From a virus: a DNA stretch of 64,000 bases. The translations under genes and the position numbers were made by a program. Each line of letters begins with the position of its first letter. Position 1 is the stretch's first letter. The notes beneath the pieces were generated by a model. That model was not told where the DNA came from. It saw only the letters and a program-made list of their open reading frames with translations, and made no database searches. Positions 3,725 through 59,452 of the stretch are shown piece after piece. The stretch spans positions 96,001 through 160,000 of the IMG/VR virus record IMGVR_UViG_3300030099_006944. The stretch is one strand, 5' to 3'.

Positions 3725-4286
3725 CATCACCCCCGAAGAAGAAGCAACTCCGCAAGAACAAGAAAACTCAATTAAGATCGAAATCATCGAGAAAGATGAG
3801 TTGGAATTCAATCTTAACCTGAGGAGTGCCTTAAATGGGGATCTTATGATTTTAGATCACAAGGACATTGATATCGTTGTACAACCAACCTCTAAAAAAG
3901 TAGTCACTTTTGCAAAAGAGATAACATCAGACGCAGTGTATGGTGCCGAATCTAGACTTCTAGAATATTTGAGAAGACAAGGTGTTATAAATTATGATTC
4001 AATTCAAGGTGGAAACGTATATGGATCTTTGGAAGGTCAGATTATGGACTCCAAATCTCATGATCCAATAAAAGTGGCTCTGCTTAAAATTTCTGAATGG
4101 ATGGAAACAGAGAAACCTTATATTTCTGGTACCACGGCATATGACGATATGCAGGATGATGCTTTGATCGATCCGGACAACGAATATTCGACAGAATTAG
4201 GTCAAGTACCACACGCTGCCGAAAAGGGCTCCATTGTTCAGAACAACCTTTTCGCTCCATACCTATATGGAAGATACACTTACTGA
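3708..4286 (+). CDS. Hypothetical protein
   Basis: 192-aa ORF with a GGAGG RBS, overlapping its neighbours. Confidence 0.7.
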   Translation: MSVKINITPEEEATPQEQENSIKIEIIEKDELEFNLNLRSALNGDLMILDHKDIDIVVQPTSKKVVTFAKEITSDAVYGAESRLLEYLRRQGVINYDSIQGGNVYGSLEGQIMDSKSHDPIKVALLKISEWMETEKPYISGTTAYDDMQDDALIDPDNEYSTELGQVPHAAEKGSIVQNNLFAPYLYGRYTY

Positions 4287-4996
4287 TGAAAAAACTACTA
4301 GAAAATTTTAAGAGCTTTTTGTCTGAGGACGAAAAAGAACCAATACCTTTACCGGACACTTCTAACATTGGACTTTTTCATGATCCGGATATAGACAATC
4401 ATGAGTTAATATTATATTATCTGACTCCGCGCGGACCCTTTCCATTTGCCGCATGCGGTATAGATCGCCTCAGCGAAAACAAGAAAGGTGAACAATGTAT
4501 ACCTGAGACATGGCATATGTCTTGGATATATGTTCATGAAACCTTTCAAGGTTCGGGTTGGAGTAAAATTTTATACGGACTGTCATTTAATTTGGTTAAT
4601 AAAGAAGGCGCAGGGCTAACATCCGATCATTGGTCTTCCACGTCAGACGATGCAAAAAGCCGCGCTTGGGATAAAATGATATCTCGTAATCAACTGGTTC
4701 CCAGAAAAACTCCGGGTACTCCTCCGACCGGAGGCCACTCTGAATTCGATTATGGTAAGGCCGGATTTAAGAAGACCCCTTTGGATCCCATGGATGACTG
4801 TCGCGAACCCGGAGGCGGAAAAGCAGCAACATCAACTAGTTGGATAATGAAAGGACACAGCTACTTTGATTCGATTTATGATGATCTAACTGAAAATCAT
4901 GATCTGCTTATGTCAGCAGTACCCAATCGTGAACAAGTGGAACGAAGACTATCAGACGTTGCCGCTGATGAATTTGAAGTTGCTTATAGGGGGTAA
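4286..4996 (+). CDS. GNAT-like (acetyltransferase-fold) protein with a putative capsid-targeting leader
   Basis: MSWIYVHETFQGSGWSKILY resembles GNAT motif A (V-x-x-x-x-Q/R-G-x-G-x-x-x-x-L). N-terminus is MKKLLENFKSFLSE. Confidence 0.5.
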   Translation: MKKLLENFKSFLSEDEKEPIPLPDTSNIGLFHDPDIDNHELILYYLTPRGPFPFAACGIDRLSENKKGEQCIPETWHMSWIYVHETFQGSGWSKILYGLSFNLVNKEGAGLTSDHWSSTSDDAKSRAWDKMISRNQLVPRKTPGTPPTGGHSEFDYGKAGFKKTPLDPMDDCREPGGGKAATSTSWIMKGHSYFDSIYDDLTENHDLLMSAVPNREQVERRLSDVAADEFEVAYRG

Positions 4997-4998
4997 CA

Positions 4999-5328
4999 GT
5001 GGATATAATTAATTTCATCCTAGTTTCTTATGGGATGACCTTCATAGTTGTGTATGGCAAGATATTTGAGAACATAAGACCAACGAAGGATTATAGTAAA
5101 AAATGGAACACCCTTTTTCATTGTCCACTTTGTATGGGTTTTTGGTGTTCTTTATTTTTGTTCTGCATAAACGGTTATACAGAACTATTTACGTTTGAAT
5201 ATTCCCTAGGGAATGCTTTCTGCCTCTCTTGTTTGGGAGCCGGAACTAGTTATTTGCTCTCCATGGTCGTTAACGATTTTGGGTTAAGAGTATCATCAAG
5301 ATCAGGAGGTGATTATGTTGATGATTAA
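4999..5328 (+). CDS. Small membrane protein with a CPLCMGFW motif (DUF1360-like)
   Basis: GTG start; three hydrophobic segments; CxxC motif. Confidence 0.55.
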   Translation: MDIINFILVSYGMTFIVVYGKIFENIRPTKDYSKKWNTLFHCPLCMGFWCSLFLFCINGYTELFTFEYSLGNAFCLSCLGAGTSYLLSMVVNDFGLRVSSRSGGDYVDD

Positions 5329-5417: not shown

Positions 5418-6026
5418 ATGTCTAAAACTTTATTAAGAGAATTCTATGCTTTATGTGAGGGTGGTATTTGTCAAGATCTTTTAACCGAAAGAGAAAAAAG
5501 GGAAATGGAAAATGGCGTTCTTTATTTATCAGGTCGTTTGCAAACTGCTGACAAGCAAAACGGAAATGGTCGGGTCTATCCTCACGAAGTCCTCAAAAGA
5601 GAGGTCAACAACTATATGAATGTAGTCAAAGACAATCGTGCTTGTGGTGAACTTGATCATCCGGATGATTCTGTTGTTAATCTTAAAAACGTTTCCCACA
5701 TCATAACTGATATATGGTGGGAAGGAAAGGATGTTATGGGCAAAATCAAAGTGCTCGATACCCCTTCCGGAAGGATCTTGAAAGATCTAGTGAATGCTGG
5801 TGTTAAACTCGGAATATCATCCAGAGGGTTAGGGTCAGTTAGAGAGAGTGCCGGGCAGACTGTTGTTGAAAATGATTTTCAATTAATTTGTTTTGATATG
5901 GTTTCCGAACCTTCAACTCCAAATGCTTATGTCTATCCAAAAGGGCAACAAAATGTATCTTCTAGGCTCAGAGAAGTTAAAGAAAATAGCATTAATGATC
6001 TATTTAAAAAGATCCTAGGAGATTAA
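5418..6026 (+). CDS. Prohead core protease (T4 gp21-like)
   Basis: Motifs QNGNGRVYP, GELDHP, GVKLGISSRGLGS (catalytic Ser) and FDMVSEPSTPNA. Confidence 0.93.
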   Translation: MSKTLLREFYALCEGGICQDLLTEREKREMENGVLYLSGRLQTADKQNGNGRVYPHEVLKREVNNYMNVVKDNRACGELDHPDDSVVNLKNVSHIITDIWWEGKDVMGKIKVLDTPSGRILKDLVNAGVKLGISSRGLGSVRESAGQTVVENDFQLICFDMVSEPSTPNAYVYPKGQQNVSSRLREVKENSINDLFKKILGD

Positions 6027-6030: not shown

Positions 6031-6270
6031 ATGAAAATAAAAAAAGACCGATTGGTACAAATTATCAAAGAGGAGCTTGATGATTATCAAATGTCAATGG
6101 CACAAGATGATCCGCAAGAATTCATGGCAGGAATGAAATCACAAGAAAGAATCAAGCAGATTGATATTCTAATCGCGGAACTACAAAGAGAAAAAGAAAT
6201 GTTGTTGATGAACATTGATTCTGGTGAGGTCACCTTTGATCAATCAAATACGCGGAGCCCAAATGAATAA
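6031..6270 (+). CDS. Small protein with leader MKIKKDRLVQIIKEE (putative internal head protein)
   Basis: GGAG RBS; leader pattern shared with 48242 and 57875. Confidence 0.55.
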   Translation: MKIKKDRLVQIIKEELDDYQMSMAQDDPQEFMAGMKSQERIKQIDILIAELQREKEMLLMNIDSGEVTFDQSNTRSPNE

Positions 6271-6688
6271 GAATGAATTGAAAAAAATCCTTAAACCTTT
6301 AATTAAAGAGTGTATTAAAGAAGTGATTTTTGAAGACGGAACTCTTTCGACTATTATATCTGAGGTTATGAAAGGAACTTCTTCTCAAAATGTCGTTTAT
6401 GAAGCAAAACAACCTAGGTTAGAAACTAAGCAAGAAGCCGATCAGCGACTGCAACGGAAACAGAAACAACTTCAAGAACAAAAACGAAAGATGTTAGACG
6501 CCATAGGAAAAGATTCCTACAATGGCGTTAATATATTTGAAGGAACTACACCAATGGCTGCTAGCAAAGAATCAACAATGTCACCACATGGAGCAAAAGC
6601 GCTGGATGGTGTTGCCCCAAATGATCCCGGAGTTGATATATCTTCGTTCGCATCAAGCGGTATTTGGAAAAAATTGGCAGGAAATTAA
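6263..6688 (+). CDS. Hypothetical head-module protein
   Basis: The more likely start is ATG 6263 (MNKNELKKILKPLIKECIKEVIFE), which has a GGAG RBS. Confidence 0.65.
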   Translation: MNKNELKKILKPLIKECIKEVIFEDGTLSTIISEVMKGTSSQNVVYEAKQPRLETKQEADQRLQRKQKQLQEQKRKMLDAIGKDSYNGVNIFEGTTPMAASKESTMSPHGAKALDGVAPNDPGVDISSFASSGIWKKLAGN

Positions 6689-6901
6689 ATGGCTACAAAT
6701 CATATAGAAAAACCTCGAAAGAATGAGGACCCAAATCGATTTATAAAAAGATTTATAAAAAAATGTAAGAAACTTGGCATAATTGACGAGGTTAAAGAGA
6801 GACGATATCACACTAAACCATCCGTAAAAAAACGACTCGCCAAGAAACGAGCGATCGCTAGACATAAGAAAGAACAGCGAAAAAGACAAAGAAGTAACTA
6901 G
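6689..6901 (+). CDS. rpsU: Ribosomal protein bS21 homologue
   Basis: 70 aa and highly basic; pattern KNE-x4-IKRFIKKCKKLGIIDEVKERRYHTKPSVKKR matches bS21 (LRRFKR...E.R.REFYEKP..KRK). Confidence 0.85.
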   Translation: MATNHIEKPRKNEDPNRFIKRFIKKCKKLGIIDEVKERRYHTKPSVKKRLAKKRAIARHKKEQRKRQRSN

Positions 6902-7414: not shown

Positions 7415-10400
7415 ATGGCGGATGGCATAGATTATGGTTGGGCGTATGTAGCGCAGAACATTGTTACCGGAGCAGGTGGAAACCTAGGTTCAATTCAGTT
7501 TAAGTCAAATGATGTTGACATATCTGGGTCAAATGCTCTAACTTATGATTACGCTACAACTACTTTAATATTGTCCGGAACACTTCACGTTTCAGGTACA
7601 ATTAATGCTAACGCTCTCAATTTAGATGTTACAAACAAAACTGTCACCAACTTAACCGCTACGGGTTCAACAAAGTTCGGAGACTCTGCTGACGATACTC
7701 ACATACTAACTGGTAGTACTACTTTAACCGGTTCCAATCCGCTTACATTGTTGGGTTTGGCTTCGGGCTCATTAGCCGGAGCAGGAAGTTTTTTAGGCCT
7801 AAACGCCAATAATCAGTTAGTCTTAACAGCCTCTTCTGATGTCACATTGCCTGTAACAGCCTTAAACAACCAATCAGCTAATCGCTTGGTCTCAATAGGG
7901 TCTACCACCACCGAGTTAGATGGAGAGGCTAATTTGACCTTTGACGGCTCGAAACTGAGTGTTACCGGTGAACTTACATCCTCCATAGGAGTTTCAGCAT
8001 CTATTGGTCGCTATACCGAGCTTACATCCAGTAATATAAAAGCTACCGGAATTACTGCTACCACAATCGCCGGAACACTATCAACGGCTGCACAAACGAA
8101 CATAACATCTGTCGGAGACCTAACAGGACTAACTGTTGATACAACAACATTGGTGGTAAATGGTACCAGCAATAAGGTTGCCATTGGCCGCGCAGCCGCA
8201 GATAAAAAATTAGAGGTAGTCGACAGTTCAGATTCGCAACTAAGATTGACTCACACAACTTCACCAGCCAGATATACCGACTTTCGATCGACATCGGATG
8301 GTTATTTAAATATCTCTCCATCCGGAGGAAGAGTTGGTATTGGAACAACAACTCCAACGGCTGAACTGGCTATAACTGGTGCTGCTCATATTTCTGGTAA
8401 TCTTGGTGTCGGGACAACTTCTCCGGCTTACAAATTAGATGTCGGAGGAAATGCTAGAATAACTGGTAATCTTATTGTCAGCGGAACATTGAACGCCAGA
8501 GTCACAGATTTTCAGGTATCCGCTAATACCTTAACACTAGGGGATGCCTCTGGTGATGCCATCACCATCAACGCGGCAACTGTAGCAGCACCAAATGGTT
8601 TAAATTTTGATTCAAATACTTTTGTCATTGATGCCGGAAATAACAGGGTTGGAATTGGTATCGCAAATCCTACTTATGATCTGGAAGTAGCTGGTAACGC
8701 TGGTATTGATGAGTATATATATCACAATGACGATGCCGATACGTATTTGAGGTTTCAGGACGATGATCTAGAGTTTCAAGTTGGCGGCAAATCTATGATC
8801 AAAATAGACGAGGACACTAAATCTAAAATATTATTCAATAAGGATGGAGATAGTACGAGTGTCGGTATCGGAACAGACAATCCCGAAGCAGAATTACATG
8901 TATCAGGAACAATAATAGCAATTAAAAACGTAGCAGTCACCGGTAGTATTACAGGTAGTGCTTTAACTGATGGCACTGTTAAGGTTACCGGAGGAAACAT
9001 ATTAAGCGTTGGAACTCTGTCAGCCACCAATATAACTGGTACGCTGGGTACTGCGGCACAAACAAATATAACTTCCGTTGGTAACTTATCTGGTTTAACT
9101 GTTGATTCTACAACACTGGTTGTTAACGGAACATCTAACAAGGTCGCGATTGGAAGGGCAGCAGCAGATAAGAAGTTGGAAATTGTTGACTCCTCTGATG
9201 CACAATTAAGATTAACGCACACTACTTCTCCGGCAAAATATGTAGATTTCAGAGCCACTTCCGACGGGAACCTGTACTTGGCGCCGAACGGAAACAAAAT
9301 TGGTATCGGCACAGCTTTACCAACACAAACATTGTCTGTGTCTGGTACGTTTGATATATCAGCTAGTGCTAACCCAATGAAGATACACGGATTGCAATCA
9401 GCAACAGCGACAACTTCAAGCTTCTTAGCTTTGGATTCAAACAATAACTTGATCTTAACTAGTTCTGGAACTGTTGTGACTGAATATGTGTCTGCTTCTA
9501 TCTTGACGTATACTAATCCTGCCAACAATCGATTGGTTACTAGTGTCGATGCCACATCTGTTAACAGCGAGGCCAATCTAACATTCGATGGAACAGATTT
9601 GACAGTTGGTGGTGGTGGATCAATATATGTTGACAAAATCAGAAGATCATCAGATAGCGGAACTACTACAAAAATCCTTCTTGATGATGAACAATTAAAG
9701 TTTTATACCGGACATGCCTCAGATGAAGTTGTAAATGTTCAGAGTGGAGTAGTAACAATCGACGGTAGGATGACAGGACTTTCTTCGTTGACATCCTCTG
9801 TTATTAATAACGATCATTTGACATCTTCCTTTGGTAAGTTCACAACAGTTACCGCTACAAATCTAGCCGGCACCCTAACCACAGCCGCGCAAACTAACAT
9901 AACATCTGTTGGTAACTTAACATCTTTAACTGTCGATTCAACAACCTTGGTAGTAAAAGCTACAACCAGCAGAGTTGGTATTGGTCGTTCAGGTCCGGTT
10001 AAGAAACTTGAAGTCTCGGACAATTCTGCTGCTCAAATGAGATTAACTCACACCAACGATTCAAAGTTCACTGATTTTCACACCACCACGGACGGGTATT
10101 TAATAATTGATCCGAGCCATGACAGGATCGGTATTGGTACAACCACTCCTACTTCCACTCTTGCTCTAAGTGGCACCCTACACATATCAGCTTCAGCCAA
10201 CCCGGTGAAGCTTTTGGGGGTTCAATCCGGATCATTGGCCGGAGAAGGGAGTTATCTGGGCTTGGATGCATCCGGACAGTTAGTGATAACAGCATCCTCC
10301 GGAGGAACAGTCACAATTAACAATGATGCCGACAACCGAGTGGTAACTGCTGGTGGAGACAGTTCTATTAATGGTGAAGCAAATCTTTTATTTGACGGCA

Positions 10401-10802: not shown

Positions 10803-10808
10803 TACATC

Positions 10809-15048: not shown

Positions 15049-16335
15049 ATGTCTAACATGTTAGAACAAGCAATTGTAGATGCTGCGGCTCTACGAGAGG
15101 CTGCTCTCAAAAATGCAGAACAATCAATTATTGAGAAGTATGCACCGCAAATTAAAGAGGCCGTAGAGGCAATGCTTGAAAACGAAGGTGCTCCCCGCAC
15201 CCATATGTATCAAGGGCGAACAGTTAGTGTGATTCACGAAGCGGACGAAGACGGCAATGTTACTGTCGCTGAGGCTGGTGGAAAACCTTTTGTCGTTAAA
15301 GAATCAGATTTGTCTGAGGCGACAGATGAAGAGGTGCTTCAAGAAGAAGAAATGGACGCTGCTGCTGACACAGCAACTGCTCCCCCTACCGAAATAGAAG
15401 CACCCCCTGCATGGGATTCGCGCTACGGAGACACGCAGTCTGTAACCCTTACCGCGATGCTAGACAACGTTGACGAAGATGGAAATATCGAAATCGACTT
15501 GGACGCCATTGAGTTGTCAATGGCCGATGCAGATCAGGGACTAGAAGACACACTTCCAGAAGAGCCCGTAGAGGACATTTCCTTGGCTCCTGAGGAAGAG
15601 GAAGGGGAAACACCCGCTGATGAAACTGGGGAGGAAATAGATGACCTTCTTGGCGATCTAGGAGGGGAAGAAGATACTGATATGCAACTCCAAGAGCTTT
15701 TGGACTTATTATCAGAATATGATGAAGGATTAATTGAAGAAGATATCGATGTCGATATGGGTGAGGCCAAAGATGGCTGGATAGATACCAACGAAGGTTC
15801 TCTGGAATATAAGAGAGACATGGAAGACGCTAAATATACTCATTCTGTTCTCGAAGAAGAGGAAGAAGAGGAAGAAGATTCCGATGAGGAAATACACCAC
15901 GATCGTCTCCATGAAGCCAAACAAGAGATAGACTTACTTCAACAAACATTTTTGGTACTCAAGCAACAAAATGAAAAGCTTGAATCCGTTGTTCATCAAT
16001 TGAACGAAAAACTTGAAGAGACTTTGCTTTCAAACGCAAAGCTTCTTTATCAAAACCGCACTTTAAATGATGCCTCCTTGAATGAGCGACAAAAATCTAA
16101 AATTGTCGAAGCCATCTCTAATGCGGAGTCTCCTAAGGAGGCAAAGAGTTTACATGAGACGTTAAGGGCAACAGTGGGAAGCCAAAAACAAAAGGCTCCA
16201 CAATCACTGAATGAAACCGTAAATCGACGATCGAATCTATCCTCTATGTTGAATTCGAGACAAAACATAAACGAAAGCAAGATTCCTGATGATTCTTTTG
16301 TAAAGAAAATGCAGAAACTTGCAGGCATTAAATAA
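15049..16335 (+). CDS. Prohead core scaffolding protein (gp22-like)
   Basis: Very acidic coiled-coil protein directly upstream of the major capsid gene; start at ATG 15049 with an AGGAG RBS. Confidence 0.75.
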   Translation: MSNMLEQAIVDAAALREAALKNAEQSIIEKYAPQIKEAVEAMLENEGAPRTHMYQGRTVSVIHEADEDGNVTVAEAGGKPFVVKESDLSEATDEEVLQEEEMDAAADTATAPPTEIEAPPAWDSRYGDTQSVTLTAMLDNVDEDGNIEIDLDAIELSMADADQGLEDTLPEEPVEDISLAPEEEEGETPADETGEEIDDLLGDLGGEEDTDMQLQELLDLLSEYDEGLIEEDIDVDMGEAKDGWIDTNEGSLEYKRDMEDAKYTHSVLEEEEEEEEDSDEEIHHDRLHEAKQEIDLLQQTFLVLKQQNEKLESVVHQLNEKLEETLLSNAKLLYQNRTLNDASLNERQKSKIVEAISNAESPKEAKSLHETLRATVGSQKQKAPQSLNETVNRRSNLSSMLNSRQNINESKIPDDSFVKKMQKLAGIK

Positions 16336-16358: not shown

Positions 16359-18221
16359 ATGTCTATTGTAGAAAAATTAACCGAAGGTATCGTGAACCGC
16401 GATATGGCCCAAGAAGGCGCTGCTCTTCTTAACAAATGGGGTCAAACTGGTTTGCTTGAAGGCCTTCAAAATGATCACCAGAAGAGCACTATGGCTCGTC
16501 TTTTGGAAAACCAAGCGAAGGAACTTCTTCGTGAGGCTTCTTCATTGGGTGCTGGTGACGTAGAAGGTTTCGCTGCTGTTGCCTTCCCTATCGTTCGTCG
16601 TGTATTCGCCGGACTTATTGCTAACGATCTTGTTAGTGTTCAGCCGATGTCACTCCCTAGTGGACTGATCTTCTTCCTTGACTTCTCTTTTGGAGATCAA
16701 GAAGGTGGAAACGGTGTTTCTGGCTCTCGTATGGGTAACACACAAGGTGGTACTGAATCTATCTATGGTACTGATAAACTTGGTTCAGAAGTTATCACCG
16801 GTGTTGGACTTACAGATAGTCTCAAAGGTGATCTTTCTGGTCCCGGCCGAAGTGGTATGGTCGGATACGCTTACGCTTCTCCAAGTGGAAGTAACGTTGC
16901 TGCTTTTACTAACAGCGATCACATTAAAGTACGCTCTGCTTTCAAACTAGATGGAAGTGTATCTGAGACTCGTGCTAAGTACATTCAATATGATCCGGAT
17001 CTACTAGCATCAACTACTTTGGGTGTTGTCGTTGTCGACGTTAACCAAGCGGAGATTGAAAGTGTTGCAGACGCCGCTGACGCAGATTTTGACAACTTGT
17101 CTGCTTTTGTATTTGATAAAGCAGCACTTCTTACTTACTTAAATGGAGTAACTGGTGGTTCTGCAATTGGCACTATTACTGCTGTTGCTAATATATCTCA
17201 AGTACGTCGTCTAACTAGAAAAGTTGCTGCTGCTGATTCCGCTACTGGTGCCGCTGCTGTGCGTTTTGTCATCTCTTTGGACGAACCAGCACAAATCACA
17301 ACAGAATCTGATACAGCAACTAATGGTGCTGGTGACCTTGCTATTGGAAAACTAAGTTTCCCAATCGTAGACCACCTTCCTGCTGCTGGTACTGTTGGAG
17401 CCGTTGGTTCTTCTAGTAACAACTTTGCTTTGGAAGGCTCCGAGAATATTCCGGAAATCGACATCAAGGTAGATTCAACTGCCATCACAGCGCAAACCAA
17501 GAAGTTGAAAGCCAAGTGGACTCCTGAATTGGGTCAAGACTTGAACGCTTACCACAACTTGGATGCTGAGGTTGAGTTGACTTCTATTCTTTCTGAGCAA
17601 ATCGCTCTGGAAATCGATCGCGAAATTCTTTCTGACTTGGTACGTGGTGCTACCGCTGCTACTTATTACTGGTCTCGTTCTCCGGGTCTCTTCGTTAACC
17701 GTTCAACTGGTGCGGAATTGGGCGCTACTGCTGCTGCTCCTGACTTCACCGGTACTGTTAGTGAATGGTATGAGACTCTCATTGAAACTATCAATGATGT
17801 TTCTGCTCAGATCCACAGAAAGACTCTTCGTGGTGGTGCTAACTATGTTGTTGTGTCTCCTGAGGGCGCTAACATTCTCGAATTCACTTCTGGATTCCGT
17901 GCTAATGTTACTGCTGACGCTGACAAAGGCGACATCGGCGCTGTTAAGGCTGGTTCATTGAGTCGTAAGTTTGACGTTATCGTTGATCCTTACTTCCCAC
18001 GTAACCTTATATTGGTTGGTCGTAAAGGTTCTTCTTTCCTTGAAAGTGGATACGTTTATGCTCCATACGTGCCTCTGCAAACTACACCAACAATCTTCGG
18101 GCCTGAAGACTTCGTTCCTCGTAAAGGGGTAATGACTCGTTATGCCAAGAAGATGGTTCGTCCTGATATGTATGGCCTTGTCATCATTCGCGGATTGCTC
18201 GGTGAGTCCGGTGCTTCCTAA
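16359..18221 (+). CDS. Major capsid protein (T4 gp23-like)
   Basis: Motifs VSVQPMSLPSGLIF, KLKAKWTPELGQDLNAYHNLDAEVELTSILSEQIALEIDREI and YAPYVPLQ...GVMTRY. Confidence 0.96.
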   Translation: MSIVEKLTEGIVNRDMAQEGAALLNKWGQTGLLEGLQNDHQKSTMARLLENQAKELLREASSLGAGDVEGFAAVAFPIVRRVFAGLIANDLVSVQPMSLPSGLIFFLDFSFGDQEGGNGVSGSRMGNTQGGTESIYGTDKLGSEVITGVGLTDSLKGDLSGPGRSGMVGYAYASPSGSNVAAFTNSDHIKVRSAFKLDGSVSETRAKYIQYDPDLLASTTLGVVVVDVNQAEIESVADAADADFDNLSAFVFDKAALLTYLNGVTGGSAIGTITAVANISQVRRLTRKVAAADSATGAAAVRFVISLDEPAQITTESDTATNGAGDLAIGKLSFPIVDHLPAAGTVGAVGSSSNNFALEGSENIPEIDIKVDSTAITAQTKKLKAKWTPELGQDLNAYHNLDAEVELTSILSEQIALEIDREILSDLVRGATAATYYWSRSPGLFVNRSTGAELGATAAAPDFTGTVSEWYETLIETINDVSAQIHRKTLRGGANYVVVSPEGANILEFTSGFRANVTADADKGDIGAVKAGSLSRKFDVIVDPYFPRNLILVGRKGSSFLESGYVYAPYVPLQTTPTIFGPEDFVPRKGVMTRYAKKMVRPDMYGLVIIRGLLGESGAS

Positions 18222-47973: not shown

Positions 47974-48249
47974 ATGTATTTAGAGCCACATAATCGTCAC
48001 CTTTTGGTGCACCCCTTAGATGATAAGGAAGAGAAAAAAGGCTTTGTCCTTCCGGAGGGTTACAAGACTCCCCAAACACCACATGTTATATGTGACGTTC
48101 TAGGAAAAGCAGAAGATTGCAAGGTAACAGTGAACATAGGAGATCGAATTGTAGTAGAAAGAACTATGTTGCACGAGATAAAAGCAATGGGAGAAACTAA
48201 TTATCTAGTGCTAGAAAATTATGTTTATGGGAGACTACAAGATGAATAA
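47974..48249 (+). CDS. groES: GroES/Cpn10-like co-chaperonin
   Basis: LEPHNRHLLV, GFVLP mobile loop, VNIGDRIVV, LVLENYVYGRL; start at ATG 47974 with a GGAGGT RBS. Confidence 0.8.
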   Translation: MYLEPHNRHLLVHPLDDKEEKKGFVLPEGYKTPQTPHVICDVLGKAEDCKVTVNIGDRIVVERTMLHEIKAMGETNYLVLENYVYGRLQDE

Positions 48250-49069
48250 GAAACAACTAAAAGAAATGATCAAACAGGTTATACTTGAAAACAGAAAGAA
48301 ATCTGTTCTCTTGGAGACCCCTCAATTACATGAAGCAACTTTTGCAAAAGCAGCAGATTATATAGACAACAAGAAACTACCATTCTTTATTGTGTCTGCT
48401 TTTCGTGGAGAACGCGGAACAAAATACAGTAGAAAAAACATATCAGCCGCTGGTGATGTTAAAGATTTCTTAAAATCTAAGGGATTGTCATATACCATAG
48501 TGGATGGTGGCTATACTGAGAAAAAGAGAGACAAAATAACGAAAGAACCACTTAAAAACCCTGAAACAGGTGATCCGGTTTACAGTGTTGAGGAAGAAGA
48601 GAGTTATTTGGTGTTTGGGGATGTACCTCATTACGGAGACACATCAGCAGCAGTTACCGATGTACAAGAACTTTTTGAGATTGCCAAAGAAGCCTGTCTT
48701 ATTGATCCTGAGAATCCCCAAGAAACTTTCAGTTTCGGATATCCAGTCGATATAATAGAACCGGGTTCAAAAGAACCTGTTCGCGAAATGCGCATAGCTT
48801 TATATGAAAACGATGCTCCGAGTTATGCACGGGAACATATGTTTACCGAATGGGGTGGTCCTTGGAATTCTTTCGCAAAGATGATGAGTGATGTTGGAGC
48901 TTACACTAAGATCAGAGGCACAAAAGGTGCTTTCGCTGAAGAAAAACTTGAAGAAGCTAGGAACATGAAAGTCAACAGTGTCATGGATGGATACAAAAAA
49001 CAACATTATGTTGATTACTGGACAAAAATGAAGGCCCGATGGGATCACGAAAACAAAAAGAGGTCTTAA
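48242..49069 (+). CDS. Hypothetical protein with a capsid-targeting-like leader; possibly DUF3293-like core
   Basis: Leader MNKKQLKEMIKQVILE; FFIVSAFRG...N...L...G..Y..V.G...EESYLV. Confidence 0.55.
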   Translation: MNKKQLKEMIKQVILENRKKSVLLETPQLHEATFAKAADYIDNKKLPFFIVSAFRGERGTKYSRKNISAAGDVKDFLKSKGLSYTIVDGGYTEKKRDKITKEPLKNPETGDPVYSVEEEESYLVFGDVPHYGDTSAAVTDVQELFEIAKEACLIDPENPQETFSFGYPVDIIEPGSKEPVREMRIALYENDAPSYAREHMFTEWGGPWNSFAKMMSDVGAYTKIRGTKGAFAEEKLEEARNMKVNSVMDGYKKQHYVDYWTKMKARWDHENKKRS

Positions 49070-49783: not shown

Positions 49784-50021
49784 GAAAGGGGACCTGTTCA
49801 AGTTCAACCAGTGCGGAACAGATTTGTTCTGTCATATATCGGGTTCCGTAGCCCTGATTGTTACTGATCCCGTGAAGATGTATGAATATGATTTTCATGA
49901 AATACCTGAGAAAAGAGAATATTATGTATACGATATAATAGTTTGTGGGCAACTATTTATGGAGATCCCGGAAGAGTTTTTAAAAAGGATAGCGTTAAAT
50001 GATGAAGAAGATACTAAATGA
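49776..50021 (+). CDS. Small KOW/SH3-like hypothetical protein
   Basis: MFKKGDLF pattern. Confidence 0.5.
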   Translation: MFKKGDLFKFNQCGTDLFCHISGSVALIVTDPVKMYEYDFHEIPEKREYYVYDIIVCGQLFMEIPEEFLKRIALNDEEDTK

Positions 50022-50520
50022 ATGGAAAAAATATTTGAAAGAAGGAACAGAATTTAATTACGAAGCCTTCATTAAAGAGTTTAATGAAATAATTGGTAAT
50101 TCCGTTTCTTATGATTCGTCCTTTTTCCGACTAGTACAAAAGAAGTACAATCCGTCTTCTCTAGAATCACTATCAGGACTGAAGCCTAGGAAAAAAAATA
50201 AAATCATCGGCCAACTTAATGCTGGCATGACTTACACTTGGCTGGAATATGTTGGTATACAAGGGGTGAAATTTGTAATTGAATACAAAGTCTCCAAATA
50301 TCTGAGTGAAGCGAAACCTGAAAATGTTGAATACCTGAAAAATAATTTTGAACAATTTTTCGAGATTTTGGCCCAATCATCTGCAACAAGACCAGATATA
50401 GAGTTTAACACTAGACATGTGGCTCTTGCTGGCCAATTAGGAGATTGGTGGATAGCCAATGATGGCTTGGAAATGTTTAAAGATGTGTTCGCAGCAAAAC
50501 TAAACATATCAGAGGTGTAA
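49999..50520 (+). CDS. Hypothetical protein with a capsid-targeting-like leader
   Basis: Leader MKKILNEWKKYLKE; late motif at 49952. Confidence 0.6.
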   Translation: MMKKILNEWKKYLKEGTEFNYEAFIKEFNEIIGNSVSYDSSFFRLVQKKYNPSSLESLSGLKPRKKNKIIGQLNAGMTYTWLEYVGIQGVKFVIEYKVSKYLSEAKPENVEYLKNNFEQFFEILAQSSATRPDIEFNTRHVALAGQLGDWWIANDGLEMFKDVFAAKLNISEV

Positions 50521-51318: not shown

Positions 51319-52193
51319 CTGGCATCGTTCCAGTTGCGGGACAATCTCTGGACTTTGATCAACCTTGGCCTGACTGCATGATGCCAATTGCTCCTGATTT
51401 TAGTTTGTTGGAAGCCGCTGTTGCTGAGTGTGCTTGGGCCGGCTGTGATACAATTTGGATAATTTGCAACGATAATATAGCAGCTCTAATAAAAAAGAAA
51501 ATTGGAGATTTCGTCGGTGATCCCGTGTGGGCTTATCGTAAATTCGATAAGTATCCCAACGAAAGTAAGCGTCAAATACCTGTTTATTATGTTCCGGTGC
51601 ATCCAAAAGACAGAGACAAGAGGGATTGCCTAGCTTGGAGTGTCTTGCATGGGTCTTTAACAGCATTCAAAGTATCAGACGAGTTGTCTAAGTGGGTTAT
51701 ACCAAACAAATATTATGTTAGCTTCCCTTATGGTTATTTTCCAGCCTATCAACTTCGAGAATATAGAAAAATTATTTCGTCCTCAAAGAACGTGTATATA
51801 ACATCTGACGACAAGTCAATGAAAGATAATTATTATTGCTCTTTTTCTTTTGGAAAGGACGAATTTATAGAATTTAGAAGGATAATCAGATCTGGTACAG
51901 GCCGTTGGAGACCCGGAGTTGACTATAAAGAGTATGACGCTTTACCAATTGAAGAAAGATGGTCAGCTAGGTTTTTTGAATTAGAACAAGTGTTTGAGCC
52001 ATTTGACACCGATCGAGCACAAAAAATACCAGTTGAAAATTTTTATAATATTGGCTCTTGGAAACAGTATAAACTCTTTATGTCCGAGAATCTCGATAAT
52101 GAAATAAAAAGGCCATCAAAAACAATTTTGTTAAATCAAGCTTACAAACCGATTGGGAAAAACTACTTAGAGGGTGATGCGGAAGAAACTTAA
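51276..52193 (+). CDS. Nucleotidyltransferase-like protein (GT-A / NTP-transferase fold, degenerate)
   Basis: AGIVPVAG....P..MMPI....LLEAAVAECAWAGCDTIWII mirrors the RmlA/GalU N-terminus. Confidence 0.6.
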   Translation: MEVTREDNTKYFHLAGIVPVAGQSLDFDQPWPDCMMPIAPDFSLLEAAVAECAWAGCDTIWIICNDNIAALIKKKIGDFVGDPVWAYRKFDKYPNESKRQIPVYYVPVHPKDRDKRDCLAWSVLHGSLTAFKVSDELSKWVIPNKYYVSFPYGYFPAYQLREYRKIISSSKNVYITSDDKSMKDNYYCSFSFGKDEFIEFRRIIRSGTGRWRPGVDYKEYDALPIEERWSARFFELEQVFEPFDTDRAQKIPVENFYNIGSWKQYKLFMSENLDNEIKRPSKTILLNQAYKPIGKNYLEGDAEET

Positions 52194-52782
52194 ATTTAAA
52201 AAATTATTAAATCATTATCGATCTCTCCAATATGAAGAAGAATACGTCAAAGAGGTTCTAAAAGAAGCTCATATTGAATTTGACGAATATTATAGGGAAT
52301 TTTGTAGAATATATCTTGTCAACATAGAGAGGTTGGAAAAAAAGAAAAATGATAGACTCAAAGCAGCCTACGAACAGAGTGAAAAACCATCCATGAAAGG
52401 CGTTGACGAAAAATTGAGAGCAAAAGATTATGATCATAAAAATGTTTTCAAGCAAATAGCCAGAAAACTCCATCCAGACAAATTAAGTGAGGACGATCCG
52501 AGACTTAAGGAATTTGAAGATGATTTCAAAACTGCTGCCGCCGGCATCAATGACGGAAACTGGGGTGACTTGTTTAATATTGCAGAGAAACACGATATTG
52601 ACATCAAGGATTATGACACAGTTAATGAATCAATTAAGGATTCAATCAAAGTTCTAGTTAAAAAAATAACAGAATTAAAAAATCAATATTCTTACATGTT
52701 TTACGAGTGTGAAGATGACAAGAACTGTAAAGATAATATAATAAAAAACTTTTTAAGACAAGTATTTGGACATAATTTATAA
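52174..52782 (+). CDS. J-domain-like protein
   Basis: KNVFKQIARKLHPDK (HPD motif) followed by the helix EFEDDFKTAAA. Confidence 0.7.
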   Translation: MMRKKLKFKKLLNHYRSLQYEEEYVKEVLKEAHIEFDEYYREFCRIYLVNIERLEKKKNDRLKAAYEQSEKPSMKGVDEKLRAKDYDHKNVFKQIARKLHPDKLSEDDPRLKEFEDDFKTAAAGINDGNWGDLFNIAEKHDIDIKDYDTVNESIKDSIKVLVKKITELKNQYSYMFYECEDDKNCKDNIIKNFLRQVFGHNL

Positions 52783-52838: not shown

Positions 52839-53789
52839 ATGAAAGAAGTTATGAATCATTGGCGAGGCTTTATCAACCCAGATTTGAGCCCAATTATAAA
52901 AAAGAGACTGGAAGAGGCTCTCACCCGACGTCAGTTTTTAGCCGGCACTGCTGCTGTTGCTTTACTTTATGCGATCATGAATAGTGATTATTTTAAGGCA
53001 TTAACTGATCAACAGCAAGATGAATTAATTCAGGCTTCACCAGAGGAGTTAGCCTCATTGGGCCTTGAAGACCCTGCTTATATTAAAGCTGTTCGTGAAT
53101 ACGAGAGGGAAGAGACTGAATCCCCACGTGATAAGTATGAAGGTCTAAGTTCACGGGAAATTAAAGATCTGCAATTCTCTACGATTGGAAAGCTAATGAT
53201 AGCACCAACAAAACTACCAGATGATAGAGAATGGCGCCTAGCACCCACATCACAAAGCCAAGTCAGTGGTTATTATGCTTATGCAACAGAGTTGGATTTG
53301 GATCTTATAGCAGAAACAAACCCAGAGATAACAAAAGCCATGGATCTCGCATACGATTTTTATAAGGGGTTTGGTCTAACTAGATTGATGAAGTATGTAT
53401 ATGGACAACCGGAGTTTTTTAGCTATACTACAATGGAAAAAGCGAACGAAGGTCAGTTGTTTGACACCATTGAAACCGAGGCTACACAAACCAACTACTT
53501 GACCGGCAAGACAGAAAACATAAAAGTTAGGAAACTTCCATTAGCTTGGACAGTAGCTAATCGAGTGCTTATAGACCAAGTTTCTTTTTTAGAATCGGAA
53601 CTGCAAGAAGCAAAGACAGATGAAGAGATCGATGCTGTTCTAGAAAGGTATGGCGTAGGTACAGAATATGGTAGTGGTTATTCAAAAACATCGAAATATG
53701 ATGTGGTTAAAAAATTAAAAAGAATTGCCGGCAATTCTTTGAGTAGAATTGAAGATGACAGCAGGGTTGTTGGAAAACATAGTAATTAA
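52839..53789 (+). CDS. Hypothetical protein with a leader followed by a twin-arginine-like signal
   Basis: MKEVMNHWRGFIN...LEE-ALTRRQFLAGTAAVALL; start at ATG 52839. Confidence 0.65.
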   Translation: MKEVMNHWRGFINPDLSPIIKKRLEEALTRRQFLAGTAAVALLYAIMNSDYFKALTDQQQDELIQASPEELASLGLEDPAYIKAVREYEREETESPRDKYEGLSSREIKDLQFSTIGKLMIAPTKLPDDREWRLAPTSQSQVSGYYAYATELDLDLIAETNPEITKAMDLAYDFYKGFGLTRLMKYVYGQPEFFSYTTMEKANEGQLFDTIETEATQTNYLTGKTENIKVRKLPLAWTVANRVLIDQVSFLESELQEAKTDEEIDAVLERYGVGTEYGSGYSKTSKYDVVKKLKRIAGNSLSRIEDDSRVVGKHSN

Positions 53790-53800: not shown

Positions 53801-53980
53801 ATGTTAAGAATTGTGAACGTTATTTTATTTATATCAGTGGTCTTGGGTATATATCTCACCACAGAGGTTGATGATAAATCAGAAAAACAAGAAGTGGTTG
53901 AAATCTATCCGGGTGATACCGCTGATGAGTATGAAAAAATAAAGGAGATTTTAGGGTCCGAAAAGGCTTCGACGGAGTAG
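53801..53980 (+). CDS. 59-aa single-pass membrane protein overlapping the tmRNA 5' end (absent from the ORF track)
   Basis: GGAGG RBS; hydrophobic residues 4-19, then an acidic tail; TAG at 53978-53980. Confidence 0.6.
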   Translation: MLRIVNVILFISVVLGIYLTTEVDDKSEKQEVVEIYPGDTADEYEKIKEILGSEKASTE

Positions 53981-54285
53981 AATCAAGGGGAGAGTGCATG
54001 CAGGGAAGATACGCCCTTAACAGTTCAAGTTTTATAAACGCAAACAATAATTTGTATTTCGAAGAAGCCCTAGCGGCTTAATCGGGTGGCTGCTCCGAGC
54101 CATCTATCCAAGAGGAGCAAAACAACAGGACAGTTGTAAAAATCAAAACAACTCAACGCAACAGGACGGTAAGCGTTGTTTTATGACCGTCTATCTTTCT
54201 GGTTGGAGAAATAATCAGATAAGCATGTGAACGACTCAAACTAAGACTATTGCGGACGCGGGTTCAACTCCCGCCGGATCCACCA
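53954..54285 (+). ncRNA. ssrA: tmRNA encoding the tag ANNNLYFEEALAA
   Basis: Acceptor stem GGGTCCG/CGGATCC-ACCA with G3:U70; 5' GGCTTCGAC; T-arm GCGGGTTCAACTCCCGC; tag ORF 54040-54081. Confidence 0.93.
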
Positions 54286-54291: not shown

Positions 54292-54363
54292 GCGGGTGTG
54301 GCTCAGTGGTAGAGCATCGCGTTGCCAACGCGAGGGTCGTGGGTTCGAATCCCATCACCCGCT
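54292..54363 (+). tRNA. tRNA-Gly(GCC), CCA not encoded
   Basis: Acceptor GCGGGTG/CACCCGC; D-arm GCTC/GAGC; anticodon stem TCGCG/CGCGA with GCC at 54324-54326; TTCGAAT T-loop; U73 discriminator. Confidence 0.95.
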
Positions 54364-54550: not shown

Positions 54551-55428
54551 AATATCTATTACCTTTTTTATTAGCTTGCACGGAAGTGTCTATTAACAAA
54601 ATACCAACAGATCCTGTTGATACATCGAAACCCATAGCGGATACCACAGAACCTTCACAGCCGGCCTCTGAGCCCTCTGTGGAGCCTATGGAAGGTATCG
54701 GAGGGTATGTACACTACTATCTTCGTCAAGTGGCTTGTCCGGCTTGTATGGGCGAATCAAATGAGATTACGGTTGAGTTTGATGCAAGGTTTCACGATAG
54801 AACTTTTGATACCTACACAAGGCACATTCCCGAACAAGGTCAGTGCACCCAAAGTATAACTCAGATATGGCCAAACTTACCCCTAATAGATATGGGATCA
54901 GAAATAAAAGCCAGAGCTAACAATTCGACTATTCATGCGTACCGAACAAGCCAAAATAATTATTTTTATGCTTGGTATACAGATGCCTCTTATATAAGAG
55001 ACACTGTACACTCTATATCTCGCGAGGATAACTATGAATTTGCAGAGTTCACATCGTTTCATGGTTTCGATTACATTGAGCCTTATGAGTTACGCTTTGT
55101 AGATCCTTCGTATGCTTTTGCTGCTCCGATATACCGTTCTGGTGCGACTTTCTGGTGGGCTCCCTATGGTACCAACACTACCTTTACAATAACGCTAGCA
55201 GTATATACTCCTGACGGCTCATCGTTGTTAGGTTATGTTGCCTGTTCAGGTGGTGACTCTGGCATGATGACCGTTCCCGGACAATATTTGTCCTCTTATC
55301 CCTATGGGGCTCTTGTCGCTGTGCATATGGCTCGGCACAAAGTTGAGCTAGTACCATGGGAAGAACAAAACACTTTCCTTGAAACACATATGGAGTGGGA
55401 AGTAATAGGAACAGGACATATAGAATGA
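54547..55428 (+). CDS. Putative lipoprotein
   Basis: MKYLLPFLLA-C lipobox followed by a Pro/Ser/Glu/Thr linker (EPSQPASEPSVEP). Confidence 0.7.
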   Translation: MKYLLPFLLACTEVSINKIPTDPVDTSKPIADTTEPSQPASEPSVEPMEGIGGYVHYYLRQVACPACMGESNEITVEFDARFHDRTFDTYTRHIPEQGQCTQSITQIWPNLPLIDMGSEIKARANNSTIHAYRTSQNNYFYAWYTDASYIRDTVHSISREDNYEFAEFTSFHGFDYIEPYELRFVDPSYAFAAPIYRSGATFWWAPYGTNTTFTITLAVYTPDGSSLLGYVACSGGDSGMMTVPGQYLSSYPYGALVAVHMARHKVELVPWEEQNTFLETHMEWEVIGTGHIE

Positions 55429-55727
55429 CAAAGAAGCAAAAAGACATATTAATAAAAGATAGACAGAAGATCGGAAGACCAAAGAAATACAAAGTTGTTT
55501 TCTACAATGACGACTATACTCCTATGTTCTTGGTCACTTCGATATTGATAGAAGTATTTAATAAAGGATTACCCGAAGCACAATCGATTATGATGAGGGT
55601 ACACAAACAAGGAAAAGGAGTAGCAGGTGTCTATTCAAAAGAAATCGCACAAACAAAAGTTGAAACAACAAAAATGTATGCAAGAGAAGCAGGATACCCG
55701 CTCCACGCCGAAGCAGAACCAGAGTAG
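55425..55727 (+). CDS. clpS: ClpS N-degron adaptor
   Basis: YKVVFYNDDYTPM, VF.K...A..IMMRVH.QGKGVAGVY..EIAQTKV...AR..GYPL. Confidence 0.93.
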   Translation: MTKKQKDILIKDRQKIGRPKKYKVVFYNDDYTPMFLVTSILIEVFNKGLPEAQSIMMRVHKQGKGVAGVYSKEIAQTKVETTKMYAREAGYPLHAEAEPE

Positions 55728-56489: not shown

Positions 56490-57572
56490 ATGATTTTTAT
56501 ATGGAACTATGCCTTTAGGCATTTAATGAAAAAATATTGGGGAAACAGGTACAGATCGATACCAGTTTTCCATATGGAACTGGCAGGAGATATGCTGGGT
56601 AATTTTAGACATGATAAGAATGGTTTCAACACTATTTGTTTAGCCAACAACCAAGGACTTACAGATAGGCAATTGATGGGTGTTCTATTGCACGAAATGT
56701 GCCACCACGTTGCTTATGAGAAGCATGGAATGGATATTGATGCTCATGGGGCCGAATGGGAAACCGAGATGAAATTTGTAGGGTTTGAATATCCCATAGA
56801 CCAAGACACAGATGGCACAGAATTCTTTTCCGAAGAAGAGTATCAAGAGATACTTCGGTTATTACCCGGAGAACAAGAGACCTTTGAGTGGACTGACTCT
56901 TTGACTTTTATGAAAAAAATGGAAAAGAATTGTGTTGACTTAGTTTTAACCGACCCGCCATATATCATAAGTAAACCTTCGGGATTCAAAAGTGTTAAAG
57001 AAGGAGTGGAGCGTTTTGCTGTGTCGACCGAACATGGAGAATGGGACAAAGAGGAAAATTTTTCTCTGAAAGATTTGCGAGATTCCGTAAAAGAGTATTA
57101 TCGTGTATTAAAGAAGCACGGTACTGCTATTGTCTTTTGCGATCTCTGGAAGATCACAGACGTAAAGCGTATAATGGAAGAAGTAGGCTTTAAGCAAATT
57201 CGCTTCATAGAGTGGCTCAAAACAAATCCGGTCCCTCTCAATTCGAGCAGGAACTATCTTACAAACGCCAGAGAGGTCGCTCTCCTAGGCGTAAAGGTCA
57301 GCAAGCCCACGTTTCATTCGAGCTATGATAATGGGATTTATCAATTACCGATTTGCCACGAGAAAGGTAGGTTTCACCCAACACAAAAGCCTCTTATGCT
57401 GATGCAACTGTTAATAGAAAAACATAGTAACCCGGGAGACGTGGTATTGGACACATTCGCCGGAGCAGCGACCACGCTGCTCGCCGCCAAAAATTTAGGC
57501 CGTGGATTCCTTGGTTGTGAACTTGACGAAGAATTCTTTGTTAAAGCAGAGAAACGACTCTTCGATCTCTAA
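56490..57572 (+). CDS. SprT-like metalloprotease fused to a beta-class amino-DNA methyltransferase
   Basis: N-terminal LLHEMCHH...HGAEW (HExxH zincin); C-terminal LTDPPY, HPTQKP, VLDTFAGAATT, GCEL. Confidence 0.8.
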   Translation: MIFIWNYAFRHLMKKYWGNRYRSIPVFHMELAGDMLGNFRHDKNGFNTICLANNQGLTDRQLMGVLLHEMCHHVAYEKHGMDIDAHGAEWETEMKFVGFEYPIDQDTDGTEFFSEEEYQEILRLLPGEQETFEWTDSLTFMKKMEKNCVDLVLTDPPYIISKPSGFKSVKEGVERFAVSTEHGEWDKEENFSLKDLRDSVKEYYRVLKKHGTAIVFCDLWKITDVKRIMEEVGFKQIRFIEWLKTNPVPLNSSRNYLTNAREVALLGVKVSKPTFHSSYDNGIYQLPICHEKGRFHPTQKPLMLMQLLIEKHSNPGDVVLDTFAGAATTLLAAKNLGRGFLGCELDEEFFVKAEKRLFDL

Positions 57573-57602
57573 TTATTAAAGCAATATTAGGAGGGATTAT
57601 GA

Positions 57603-57878
57603 ATGGAGGCGATAATTGAGGGCTTGGCCCAATATGGACCATTGGGTCTTTGGACTGCATCTTTGCTTTGGATGAACTGGCAGCAACGCAAAGATCAAAA
57701 AGAAGATGAAGAAAGAGCAGCCGATCGATTGCGGTATTACCAAGAAAACATCATAACAAGACTTGAAAATCAAGAAAAAATGCTCGAAAGGGCACTAATT
57801 AAGTTGGACGACGGTCTTAGTGCTATGCGTGAAAAATATGCCGAAGATCGTATAATGCGAATGAAGGGTGACAAATGA
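57603..57878 (+). CDS. Small membrane-anchored coiled-coil protein (holin-like)
   Basis: LAQYGPLGLWTASLLWM hydrophobic N-terminus followed by a charged coiled coil. Confidence 0.45.
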   Translation: MEAIIEGLAQYGPLGLWTASLLWMNWQQRKDQKEDEERAADRLRYYQENIITRLENQEKMLERALIKLDDGLSAMREKYAEDRIMRMKGDK

Positions 57879-59452
57879 AAAAAAAGACATTATATAAATT
57901 AATCGAACAAGTCTTAAATGAGGCTGAAATTAAAGAACTAATGGCATCGGCAGACCCAGATTATATTGCGCAAGCTGTCGACATTGCCGTTATGCTTGGA
58001 GACGAAGAAAAACAACAAGTCATTGATGGATTTTTGCAGTTAAAGGCAGAAGATTTTTTATACAGTGCACACACCTTAATGGAAGAAGACGATGAATTCT
58101 CAGTAAGGCAGATGATGCCGATTTACGATACAGTCAAATACACACTCCTTAGTGTCTTTAGAAAACGCAGAATGCCTACTATCACTAGAAACCAAGACGC
58201 GTCACCATGGCTGTTGGAGCAAGCTTATTTGTTTCTGAATAGACTACATCAGAAAAAAGCGGCAGACAGAGACATGCTGTATTTAGCAAAAAACCCAGCA
58301 ACACCAGTTAAAGTATTGAATAGATTGAAAACATACTGGATGGCCGAGGTTAGAAAATCTGCCGAGAATAACTTATCATCACGTGATCCATTAGAAGAAA
58401 AAAAGAAGCGCAAGAAGAAAGAAAAGACCAAGAAGGATGCTTGCTATCATAAGGTGAAGTCGCGTTATGATGTTTGGCCGTCTGCTTATGCTTCCGGCGC
58501 TCTTGTTAAATGTCGCAAAGTCGGAGCAAAGAATTGGGGTAACTCAAAGAAAGAATCTTTGGGCGAAGCAGAAATTACCGACGACGAAAAAGAAGAACTG
58601 AAAGATATTTCAAAGCAACTAAAAGGCGCCGTTAAGGCTCACGGTAAGCAGGCAAAGACAATTGACAAAGCAATTAAAAAAGAAGGCAAGAAAAACTGCG
58701 GCTGCGGTCAAGATCCCTGTAAGACATATGGTATTCAAGAACAAAAAACTGAGGAACTTGAAGAGCGATGCCAAAAGGGATATAAGACCCACGACACGCA
58801 AAAAACAAAAGAAATGTTTGGAAGAACATATCGTAATTGTGTAAAAGCCGAAGAGGGCCAACTAGACGAAGAGGGATTGAAGGCTTGGTTTGATGATGCC
58901 GATGGTGATGGACAAAGCGGCTGGGAGCAAATTGGCGGTAAATACGATGGTAAACCGTGTGCCAAGCAGCCCGGACAAAAAACCAAGCCAAAATGTGCAT
59001 CCCCAGAAAAAGCAGCATCAATGACCAAAAAAGAAAGAGATAGTGCTGCTAGAAGAAAAAGAAAAAAAGATCCGAATCCAAATCGCAAAGGTAAAGCAAA
59101 AAACGTTAACACAGACCCAAAGAAAGAATCTCTATATAGAATCATCGAAGCGGTCATCGAAGAAATGAATAACGAACTTGCCGAGGCGGAACTGGAAGAA
59201 AAGAAAAATTCAAAGTGCACCAAGGCTACAAAGAAAGCATCATCCACCCGCAAAGGAAAGAAGTGGATGAAGTGTGTAAAGAGCGACAGTGGTGGATACA
59301 AAAGAATTCACTGGGGACAAAAGGGCGTAAGAGTTACCGGTAAATCTGGTAACACAAAAAGAAAGAAATCATTTAAGGCTAGACACAATTGTTCCAAGGC
59401 AAAATCGAATACACCACAAGGCCAAGCGTGTAAAGATTGGGCGGAAGAATAA
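57875..59452 (+). CDS. Modular basic, Cys-containing protein with a capsid-targeting-like leader
   Basis: Short K/C-rich modules separated by LEE/LGE/IQE/LDE; see findings. Confidence 0.7.
   Translation: MKKKTLYKLIEQVLNEAEIKELMASADPDYIAQAVDIAVMLGDEEKQQVIDGFLQLKAEDFLYSAHTLMEEDDEFSVRQMMPIYDTVKYTLLSVFRKRRMPTITRNQDASPWLLEQAYLFLNRLHQKKAADRDMLYLAKNPATPVKVLNRLKTYWMAEVRKSAENNLSSRDPLEEKKKRKKKEKTKKDACYHKVKSRYDVWPSAYASGALVKCRKVGAKNWGNSKKESLGEAEITDDEKEELKDISKQLKGAVKAHGKQAKTIDKAIKKEGKKNCGCGQDPCKTYGIQEQKTEELEERCQKGYKTHDTQKTKEMFGRTYRNCVKAEEGQLDEEGLKAWFDDADGDGQSGWEQIGGKYDGKPCAKQPGQKTKPKCASPEKAASMTKKERDSAARRKRKKDPNPNRKGKAKNVNTDPKKESLYRIIEAVIEEMNNELAEAELEEKKNSKCTKATKKASSTRKGKKWMKCVKSDSGGYKRIHWGQKGVRVTGKSGNTKRKKSFKARHNCSKAKSNTPQGQACKDWAEE

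Follow-up and report, generated by a model that had tools for sequence, protein, structure and literature searches.

Unrelated proteins of an uncultured marine T4-type phage carry exchangeable N-terminal leaders that resemble capsid-targeting propeptides

Why should proteins that have nothing else in common begin with the same kind of short N-terminal leader? The question is raised by a 64,000-nucleotide stretch of viral DNA (the window; bases 96,001–160,000 of the 187,355-bp genome in IMG/VR record IMGVR_UViG_3300030099_006944), in which a first-pass annotation had listed seven such peptides. They start genes 4286, 6031, 6263, 48242, 49999, 52839 and 57875, named here by their first base in the window; positions counted on the whole genome are marked as such. 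All seven peptides are found where the annotation had put them, behind plausible start codons with a Shine-Dalgarno sequence or a stop/start overlap. The genome, a single contig with nearly every gene on one strand, is that of an uncultured marine T4-type phage, and the window contains a T4-type head module with the end of the large terminase, the portal (phrog_213), a Peptidase_S77 protease and a gp23-type major capsid protein (MCP). Megablast against GenBank phages found no close relative; by capsid protein, identity to the closest database phages (Flavobacterium phage immuto, whose host is Flavobacterium sp. LMO8, Microcystis phage Mel-JY01, Rhodothermus phage RM378 and an uncultured huge phage) reaches only about 48%. 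IMG/VR holds some 600 contigs with a protease 74–93% identical, and 80 head-module loci were taken as the comparison set. Gene calling over the whole genome gave about 218 proteins, and 217 N-termini were compared. We find that the leaders are real, N-terminal, modular and exchangeable, and suggest that they are probably capsid-targeting propeptides removed by the prohead protease.

The proposal that all seven N-termini are leaders stands for six, which belong to families extending far beyond chance, but not for 52839. Genome-wide the leader set comprises 18 strong and four weak members; carriers make up about one-tenth of the phage proteins, and the window holds only part of the set. The type-2a consensus MK[IL]TKxQLKxIIKEEL starts 12 proteins of the genome, 6031 among them. 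Scored with a leave-one-out position-specific scoring matrix (PSSM), these reach 19–41 bits, whereas none of the remaining 205 N-termini exceeds 9 bits, and a type-2a profile made from the relatives alone returned nine of this genome's own N-termini as its top matches. The relatives-only profile of type 1 recovered 4286 (expectation value, E, 8.6e-6) and the second Met of 49999, at 50002 (E 8e-5). Two leader types had been distinguished by the annotation. Type 1 (4286 and 50002) is upheld by profile, whereas its "type 2" is heterogeneous and separates into type 2a, type 2b and the 6263 block. Type 2b is looser, L-x-K-[LMI]-I-x-Q-V-[IL]-x-E, and common to 48242, 57875 and genome open reading frame (ORF) 167911. 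The N-terminus of 6263 is the start of its own 40-residue block conserved among orthologues, and the other leader profiles do not find it.

When leader profiles were run over the genome and its relatives, the check that the annotation had called for, matches concentrated on start codons and internal copies were few. In a six-frame scan every strong match fell on a start codon, and the weaker internal copies all lay within leader proteins: at residue 381 of a 724-amino-acid (aa) protein, at residue 414 of 57875 and at the C-terminus of genome ORF 9383. Across the 80 related loci, virtually all of the 266 leader matches were at a start codon or no more than three codons from one. Leader genes cluster near the terminase-portal-protease module. 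Selection on the leaders acts at the amino-acid level and not on DNA repeats, because every synonymous codon occurs in the invariant columns (position 8 has all six codons for Leu, position 12 all three for Ile) and only the ribosome-binding site is conserved in the DNA upstream.

Further observations come from outside the window. The 724-aa leader protein (genome 9853–12027) holds, at residue 381, a copy of its own leader, which suggests tandem duplication of a leader-cargo unit; genome ORF 9383, immediately upstream, has a leader-like helix at its C-terminus. At genome 92250, just before gene 92297, a 15-codon ORF with a type-2a-like start followed by two stops resembles what would be left of a leader gene that was lost.

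Behind their leaders the carriers are otherwise unrelated, as had been claimed: the 22 cargos of this genome share no BLASTP similarity, and 261 leader ORFs (from the genome and the 80 related head-module loci) fell into 109 BLASTP cargo clusters once the first 22 residues were removed. The description of the leaders as portable is likewise borne out, in both directions. The 48242 cargo family has 46 database homologues, alignable to identities as low as 33%, and in different relatives it occurs with each of the three leader types (2b, type 1 and 2a). In two related contigs an identical 2b leader with about ten further residues is joined to another cargo (Pfam DUF3293), and this swap sits at the same locus as the 48242 cargo, between the GroES-like gene and thyX. 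Three leaders on one cargo and two cargos on one leader require exchange, not divergence. The N-part and C-part of 57875 recombine separately among relatives with the leader always retained: in one relative the last 346 residues, 90% identical, follow a different N-domain, in a second the first 181 residues, 75% identical, precede a different C-part, and both start with a 2b leader. Orthologues of 49999 keep the leader while cargo identity drops to 34–36%.

The module encodes a prohead protease of the T4 gp21 family (5418..6026, + strand; Pfam PF03420, Peptidase_S77, E 1.9e-34; phrog_207, E 3e-61). A BLASTP alignment of 146 aa with T4 gp21 shows 39% identity (E 3e-29), and the two enzymes share the blocks GELxHP and SSRGLGS, which surround the active-site His and Ser. 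The gp23-family MCP (16359..18221, + strand; phrog_138, E 3e-71) has a predicted maturation site LLRE/A, the slash marking the cut. The annotation had likened these residues, 56–60, to the gp23 site, and BLASTP agrees, placing LLRE (56–59) on T4 FLTE (62–65); FLTE/A is the known E65/A66 cut of T4 gp23. By eye, the MCP counterparts at the corresponding N-terminal position read IVSE/A in immuto and LISE/A in Mel-JY01. Apart from 52839, the leaders end in the same kind of site as the MCP, (L/I)-x-Glu. Type 1 ends in aromatic-[LI]-x-E, as does the T4 tag (internal proteins IPII and IPIII read MKTYQEFIAE/A in the T4 record), and I12 and E14 are invariant in 29 type-2a leaders. In 25 of 28 homologues of the 48242 family [ILVM]-x-E stands directly before the conserved domain; the remaining three have it one residue earlier. 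This holds whichever leader type is present, against a background rate of 0.02 per position. As read from the sequences, the leader ends match the specificity expected of the encoded protease.

In the mechanism that we propose, an amphipathic N-terminal helix of 14–20 residues would dock its protein onto the assembling prohead core. Once the shell closes, the gp21-type protease would cut after [ILVM]-x-Glu, either where the leader ends or, further on, where a short disordered linker ends, so that the leader would be released and the mature protein retained inside the head. The leader classes, at least three, would be functionally equivalent. Carriers that are probably core parts (6031, 6263 and many small acidic ones) would be degraded, and others (GNAT-fold 4286, basic 57875, 48242 and 49999) would remain with the DNA and pass into the host. 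Docking, cutting, retention and ejection are steps that we infer. About one in ten of the phage proteins starts with a leader resembling a longer T4 tag, so the capsid probably receives a large protein load whose composition changes fast.

Nearly all leader cargos remained orphan after sequence searches of Pfam, PHROGs and the PDB. Gene 4286 (4286..4996, + strand), which lies between portal and protease here and in relatives, joins a type-1 leader (residues 1–14, ending FLSE; present in 21 of 21 aligned orthologues) to a cargo with no match in Pfam. Its AlphaFold2 model has a mean predicted local distance difference test (pLDDT) score of 85.5, with about 47 for the leader. The top 50 Foldseek matches in the PDB are mostly GNAT/MYST with a few other acetyl- or acyltransferases (best E 5e-4, template-modelling score 0.3/0.45), and the orthologues conserve an RG-x-G-x-GK block conforming to the R/Q-x-x-G-x-G/A motif for coenzyme A binding. 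By its predicted structure the cargo is a GNAT acetyltransferase fold. Gene 48242 (48242..49069, + strand; model pLDDT 82) has a type-2b leader (residues 1–16), a disordered linker (residues 21–31, pLDDT 37) with the sites LLE and LHE that leads to the site just before the fold, and from residue 32 a cargo with an alpha/beta core. In both models the leader is a separate low-confidence helix ahead of the folded domain. Foldseek gave no clear fold for 48242 (S-adenosylmethionine (SAM) lyase at probability 0.57–0.72, E ~0.05), and a VIA comparison with phage SAM lyase gave Z 8.6 with a root-mean-square deviation of 3.2 over 126 residues to 7ock_L and Z 6.8 to 6zm9, values near the noise level of the tool. 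The modelled likeness to a phage SAM lyase, T3-type or Svi3-3, is thus borderline, a lead and not a finding.

The other two carriers named above as candidates for ejection are 57875 and 49999. The former (57875..59452, + strand) is a modular, very basic protein (isoelectric point, pI, 9.5; matching phrog_727) with a type-2b leader ending VLNE/A and a leader-like copy at residues 414–430; by analogy it is the best counterpart here of the DNA-bound internal proteins of T4. Its operon is headed by a fusion of SprT-like and N6/N4 DNA methylase domains (56490–57572; PF10263 and PF01555). In the latter (49999..50520, + strand) a type-1 leader that begins at the second Met and ends YLKE precedes an orphan 158-aa cargo.

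Genes 6031 and 6263 had also been counted as effector cargo, and here we disagree with the annotation. The first (6031..6270, + strand) carries a type-2a leader (PSSM 28–36 bits; profile E 4.8e-8) on a 79-aa acidic protein with a mature pI of 4.2. The second (6263..6688, + strand) encodes a conserved 141-aa protein whose first 35 residues contain four [ILV]-x-E sites in succession, and each of its 69 orthologues in the 80 related loci lies after the protease. Since both genes directly follow the protease, and 6263 is conserved, syntenic and rich in [ILV]-x-E, they are more likely prohead-core or scaffold parts than effectors. A putative scaffold protein is encoded at 15049..16335 (+ strand), between protease and MCP; it is acidic, is assigned from position and composition only, and gave no family match. 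Two very large genes at 7415–13694 (1100 and 936 aa), one with a weak tail-fibre PHROG match, split the head module into core-protein genes and scaffold-MCP genes. A ribosomal protein S21 homologue also lies inside the module (6689–6901; phrog_21469, E 1.7e-11), and Mel-JY01 has an S21 homologue at the equivalent place.

Gene 52839 (52839..53789, + strand) had been assigned to type 1, an assignment that we do not retain. It is at best a doubtful type-1-like member: the type-1 profile gives 8.4 bits (E 0.6), level with non-start and out-of-frame matches, the peptide lacks the terminal Glu of an [ILV]-x-E end, and a Tat-like RRQFLAG and a hydrophobic segment follow 27 residues from the start, with a weak match to Pfam TAT_signal. 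These features suggest that the product may be exported or membrane-bound, its N-region being long. A search of five long related contigs found no match to it, and only one close relative was found in IMG/VR. Just upstream, 52177..52782 (+ strand) has a weak type-1-like motif from residue 7, at 17 bits in a PSSM built from only three sequences and with no independent support beyond that matrix.

Several leader genes share a candidate promoter motif with structural genes. CTATTTA, at 6000..6006 (+ strand) and in further window copies at 2842, 5185, 15010, 18292, 21838, 25089 and 49953, occurs in the genome 26 times on the coding (+) strand and four times on the − strand. In 1 Mb of related loci the counts by strand are 344 and 14, and it ranks first of the 105 permutations of its letters. 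It stands 23–62 nt before scaffold-like, sheath, tube and baseplate genes, the distance being 39 nt for the putative scaffold gene 15049; among the leader genes it lies 31 nt before 6031 and 46 nt before 49999, and it also precedes two operons outside the window that contain six leader genes, and in 32 of 69 relatives lies 26–27 nt before the 6263-type gene. We regard CTATTTA as a candidate late promoter, different from the T4 late promoter TATAAATA, which is not used in this phage.

A number of observations weigh against reading the leaders as capsid-targeting propeptides. The 57875 operon has a sigma70-type −10 element (only the −10 was looked at) without the late motif, and 48242 has only a near-match to that motif. 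A full sigma70-type promoter (TTGACA...TATATT) and no late motif precede 52839; promoters of this type at 52839 and 57875 are compatible with head loading but give it no support. At 2% per position [ILV]-x-E is a frequent tripeptide, so that finding it is by itself weak evidence, and the L-x-E-A-T-F block of the 48242 family could be no more than the conserved turn with which the domain opens. With a pI of 4.1–4.8, most type-2a carriers are small acidic proteins, unlike the basic internal proteins of T4, and the leaders have no sequence similarity to MKTYQEFIAE beyond the aromatic-[IL]-x-E end of type 1. Cultured distant relatives have at most a few such leaders. Head-module proteins of immuto and Mel-JY01 have related starts when read by eye; in immuto such starts are those of gp069, gp072, gp080 and gp084. 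The leader profiles, run against immuto, Mel-JY01, RM378, Syn9 and HTVC008M with a prefilter that may miss short matches, gave a good match only to immuto gp080; with the same prefilter, the type-1 profile found no match in these five phages.

Other genes of the phage bear on what else the helix might bind. A transfer-messenger RNA (tmRNA) lies at 53954–54285 (Rfam RF00023, 103 bits; the ARAGORN tag peptide ends ALAA), immediately followed by tRNA-Gly(GCC) at 54292–54363, and a ClpS adaptor is encoded about 1 kb from the tmRNA at 55425–55727 (PF02617, E 5.9e-28). Together, phage ClpS and tmRNA suggest interference with host Clp-dependent proteolysis. GroES-like and GroEL-like chaperonin genes (47974–48249 and genome 169774), recognised by N-terminus reading only, lie beside leader genes 48242 and 167911; the GroES-like gene has no match in Pfam.

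Among other explanations, the leaders could mark prohead-core or scaffold-associated parts that the protease degrades and the head expels, with no arsenal of effectors being delivered. The position of 6031 and 6263 directly after the protease gene fits this, as T4 keeps small core genes beside gene 21, and so do the many [ILV]-x-E sites of 6263 and the short, acidic character that most type-2a carriers share with T4 gp67 and gp68. We nevertheless consider it unlikely as a general account, given that some cargos are folded enzymes or DNA-binding-like (GNAT-fold 4286, basic 57875) and that hypervariable cargo at fixed loci suits accessory functions better than essential assembly parts; a Pkinase match in genome ORF 14912 also counts against it, with the limit that this ORF lies behind the late motif but scores with no leader matrix or profile. 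Slightly less probable again is a helix that serves as an interaction or localisation tag for a non-capsid partner, be it the membrane, a chaperonin or an adaptor for proteolysis, for instance the phage ClpS. The phage does encode ClpS and tmRNA, two leader genes appear beside the chaperonin-like genes on the N-terminus reading, and some leader genes have early-type promoters; a type-2a cut after the second Glu would moreover expose Leu, speculatively a ClpS-type N-degron. Yet nothing connects the tag with membrane, chaperonin or adaptor, whereas leader ends and cargo junctions fit the MCP site and the specificity of the encoded protease family, leader genes are grouped round the terminase-portal-protease module, and several of them share the structural-gene promoter motif.

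That all carriers form one old paralogue family, with C-terminal parts diverged past recognition and the N-terminus as the conserved remnant, seems to us very improbable. Small fast-evolving proteins are often missed by BLASTP, and the protein at genome 9853 does hold an internal duplicate of its own leader; the cargos nevertheless range from 79 to 724 aa with different folds, one cargo family occurs with three leader types, and one leader with two unrelated cargos. Finally, chance or a codon bias at translation starts (Lys/Asn-rich starts in an AT-rich genome) might have produced the similarity, MKK and MNK starts being common in such genomes. This we treat as refuted and give almost no credence, since leaders score 19–44 bits against at most 9 for other N-termini; conservation spans residues 8–16 with all synonymous codons, and the same leader families recur in the 80 relatives.

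Capsid-targeting propeptides thus remain our preferred reading of the leaders. The further step from a loaded protein to an ejected effector is weaker than loading itself, and for the small core-like carriers it is probably wrong. In its most far-reaching form, a three-class address system would load about 20 proteins (~10% of the proteome) into the head as a pre-packed and rapidly reshuffled kit for host takeover and anti-defence, with a GNAT acetyltransferase and a kinase as ready-made enzymes, perhaps a SAM-lyase-like protein against restriction, and a basic, histone-like protein; the classes might then set loading order, copy number or core position. We see this as conceivable, though on balance doubtful. 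If the leaders are capsid addresses, the packaged cargo of widespread uncultured marine T4-type phages becomes predictable from sequence (~600 head modules in IMG/VR), many orphan proteins become candidate injected anti-defence or takeover factors, and new, longer tags become available for loading foreign proteins into capsids. The three leader classes that replace each other on one cargo offer a clean experimental handle.

The literature searched yielded neither a study of capsid-targeting tags in cyanophages or far-T4 marine phages nor a virion proteome for immuto or Mel-JY01. The obvious comparison is with T4, whose internal proteins are diverse and have only the conserved capsid-targeting sequence (CTS) in common (PMC3012670) and whose propeptides are 10–20 residues long (PMC5694885). 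As in the T4 system, where the CTS of IPI–III and Alt is removed by gp21, a short N-terminal leader with a hydrophobic-x-Glu end is found on unrelated, fast-changing proteins, cargo is replaced at fixed loci with the leader retained, and the S77 protease and the MCP maturation site are homologous. Unlike in T4, the leaders here have 14–20 residues instead of 10, fall into at least three interchangeable classes and are carried by about 20 proteins per genome instead of about five; many carriers are acidic, a second site after a disordered linker is frequent, and the system is known from sequence alone. Genes 6031 and 6263 resemble those of the T4 core proteins gp67, gp68 and gp22 in being small, close to the protease, rich in [LI]-x-E and likely to yield degraded products, but they lie downstream of the protease where the T4 genes lie upstream, and the 6263 family showed no detectable homology to T4 gp68 (hhalign probability <1%).

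In the giant phages phiKZ and SPN3US, too, a gp21-type protease processes many of the head proteins, identical N-termini occur among some paralogues, and an ejection protein with a transmembrane helix after its propeptide provides a precedent for 52839; their propeptides, however, mostly exceed 100 residues and are cut at [S/A/G]-x-E (PMC5694885, PMC7411985). A short, portable consensus leader common to unrelated proteins is not known from these phages. Encapsulin cargo-loading peptides likewise are short and portable and send unrelated cargo inside an HK97-fold shell, but they mostly sit at the C-terminus, stay on the cargo and bind to the shell protein instead of a scaffold core. The principle, then, has been known since the work on T4; what is new here is the lineage, the length of the leaders, their division into three classes that are equivalent, and a scale of ~10% of the proteome.

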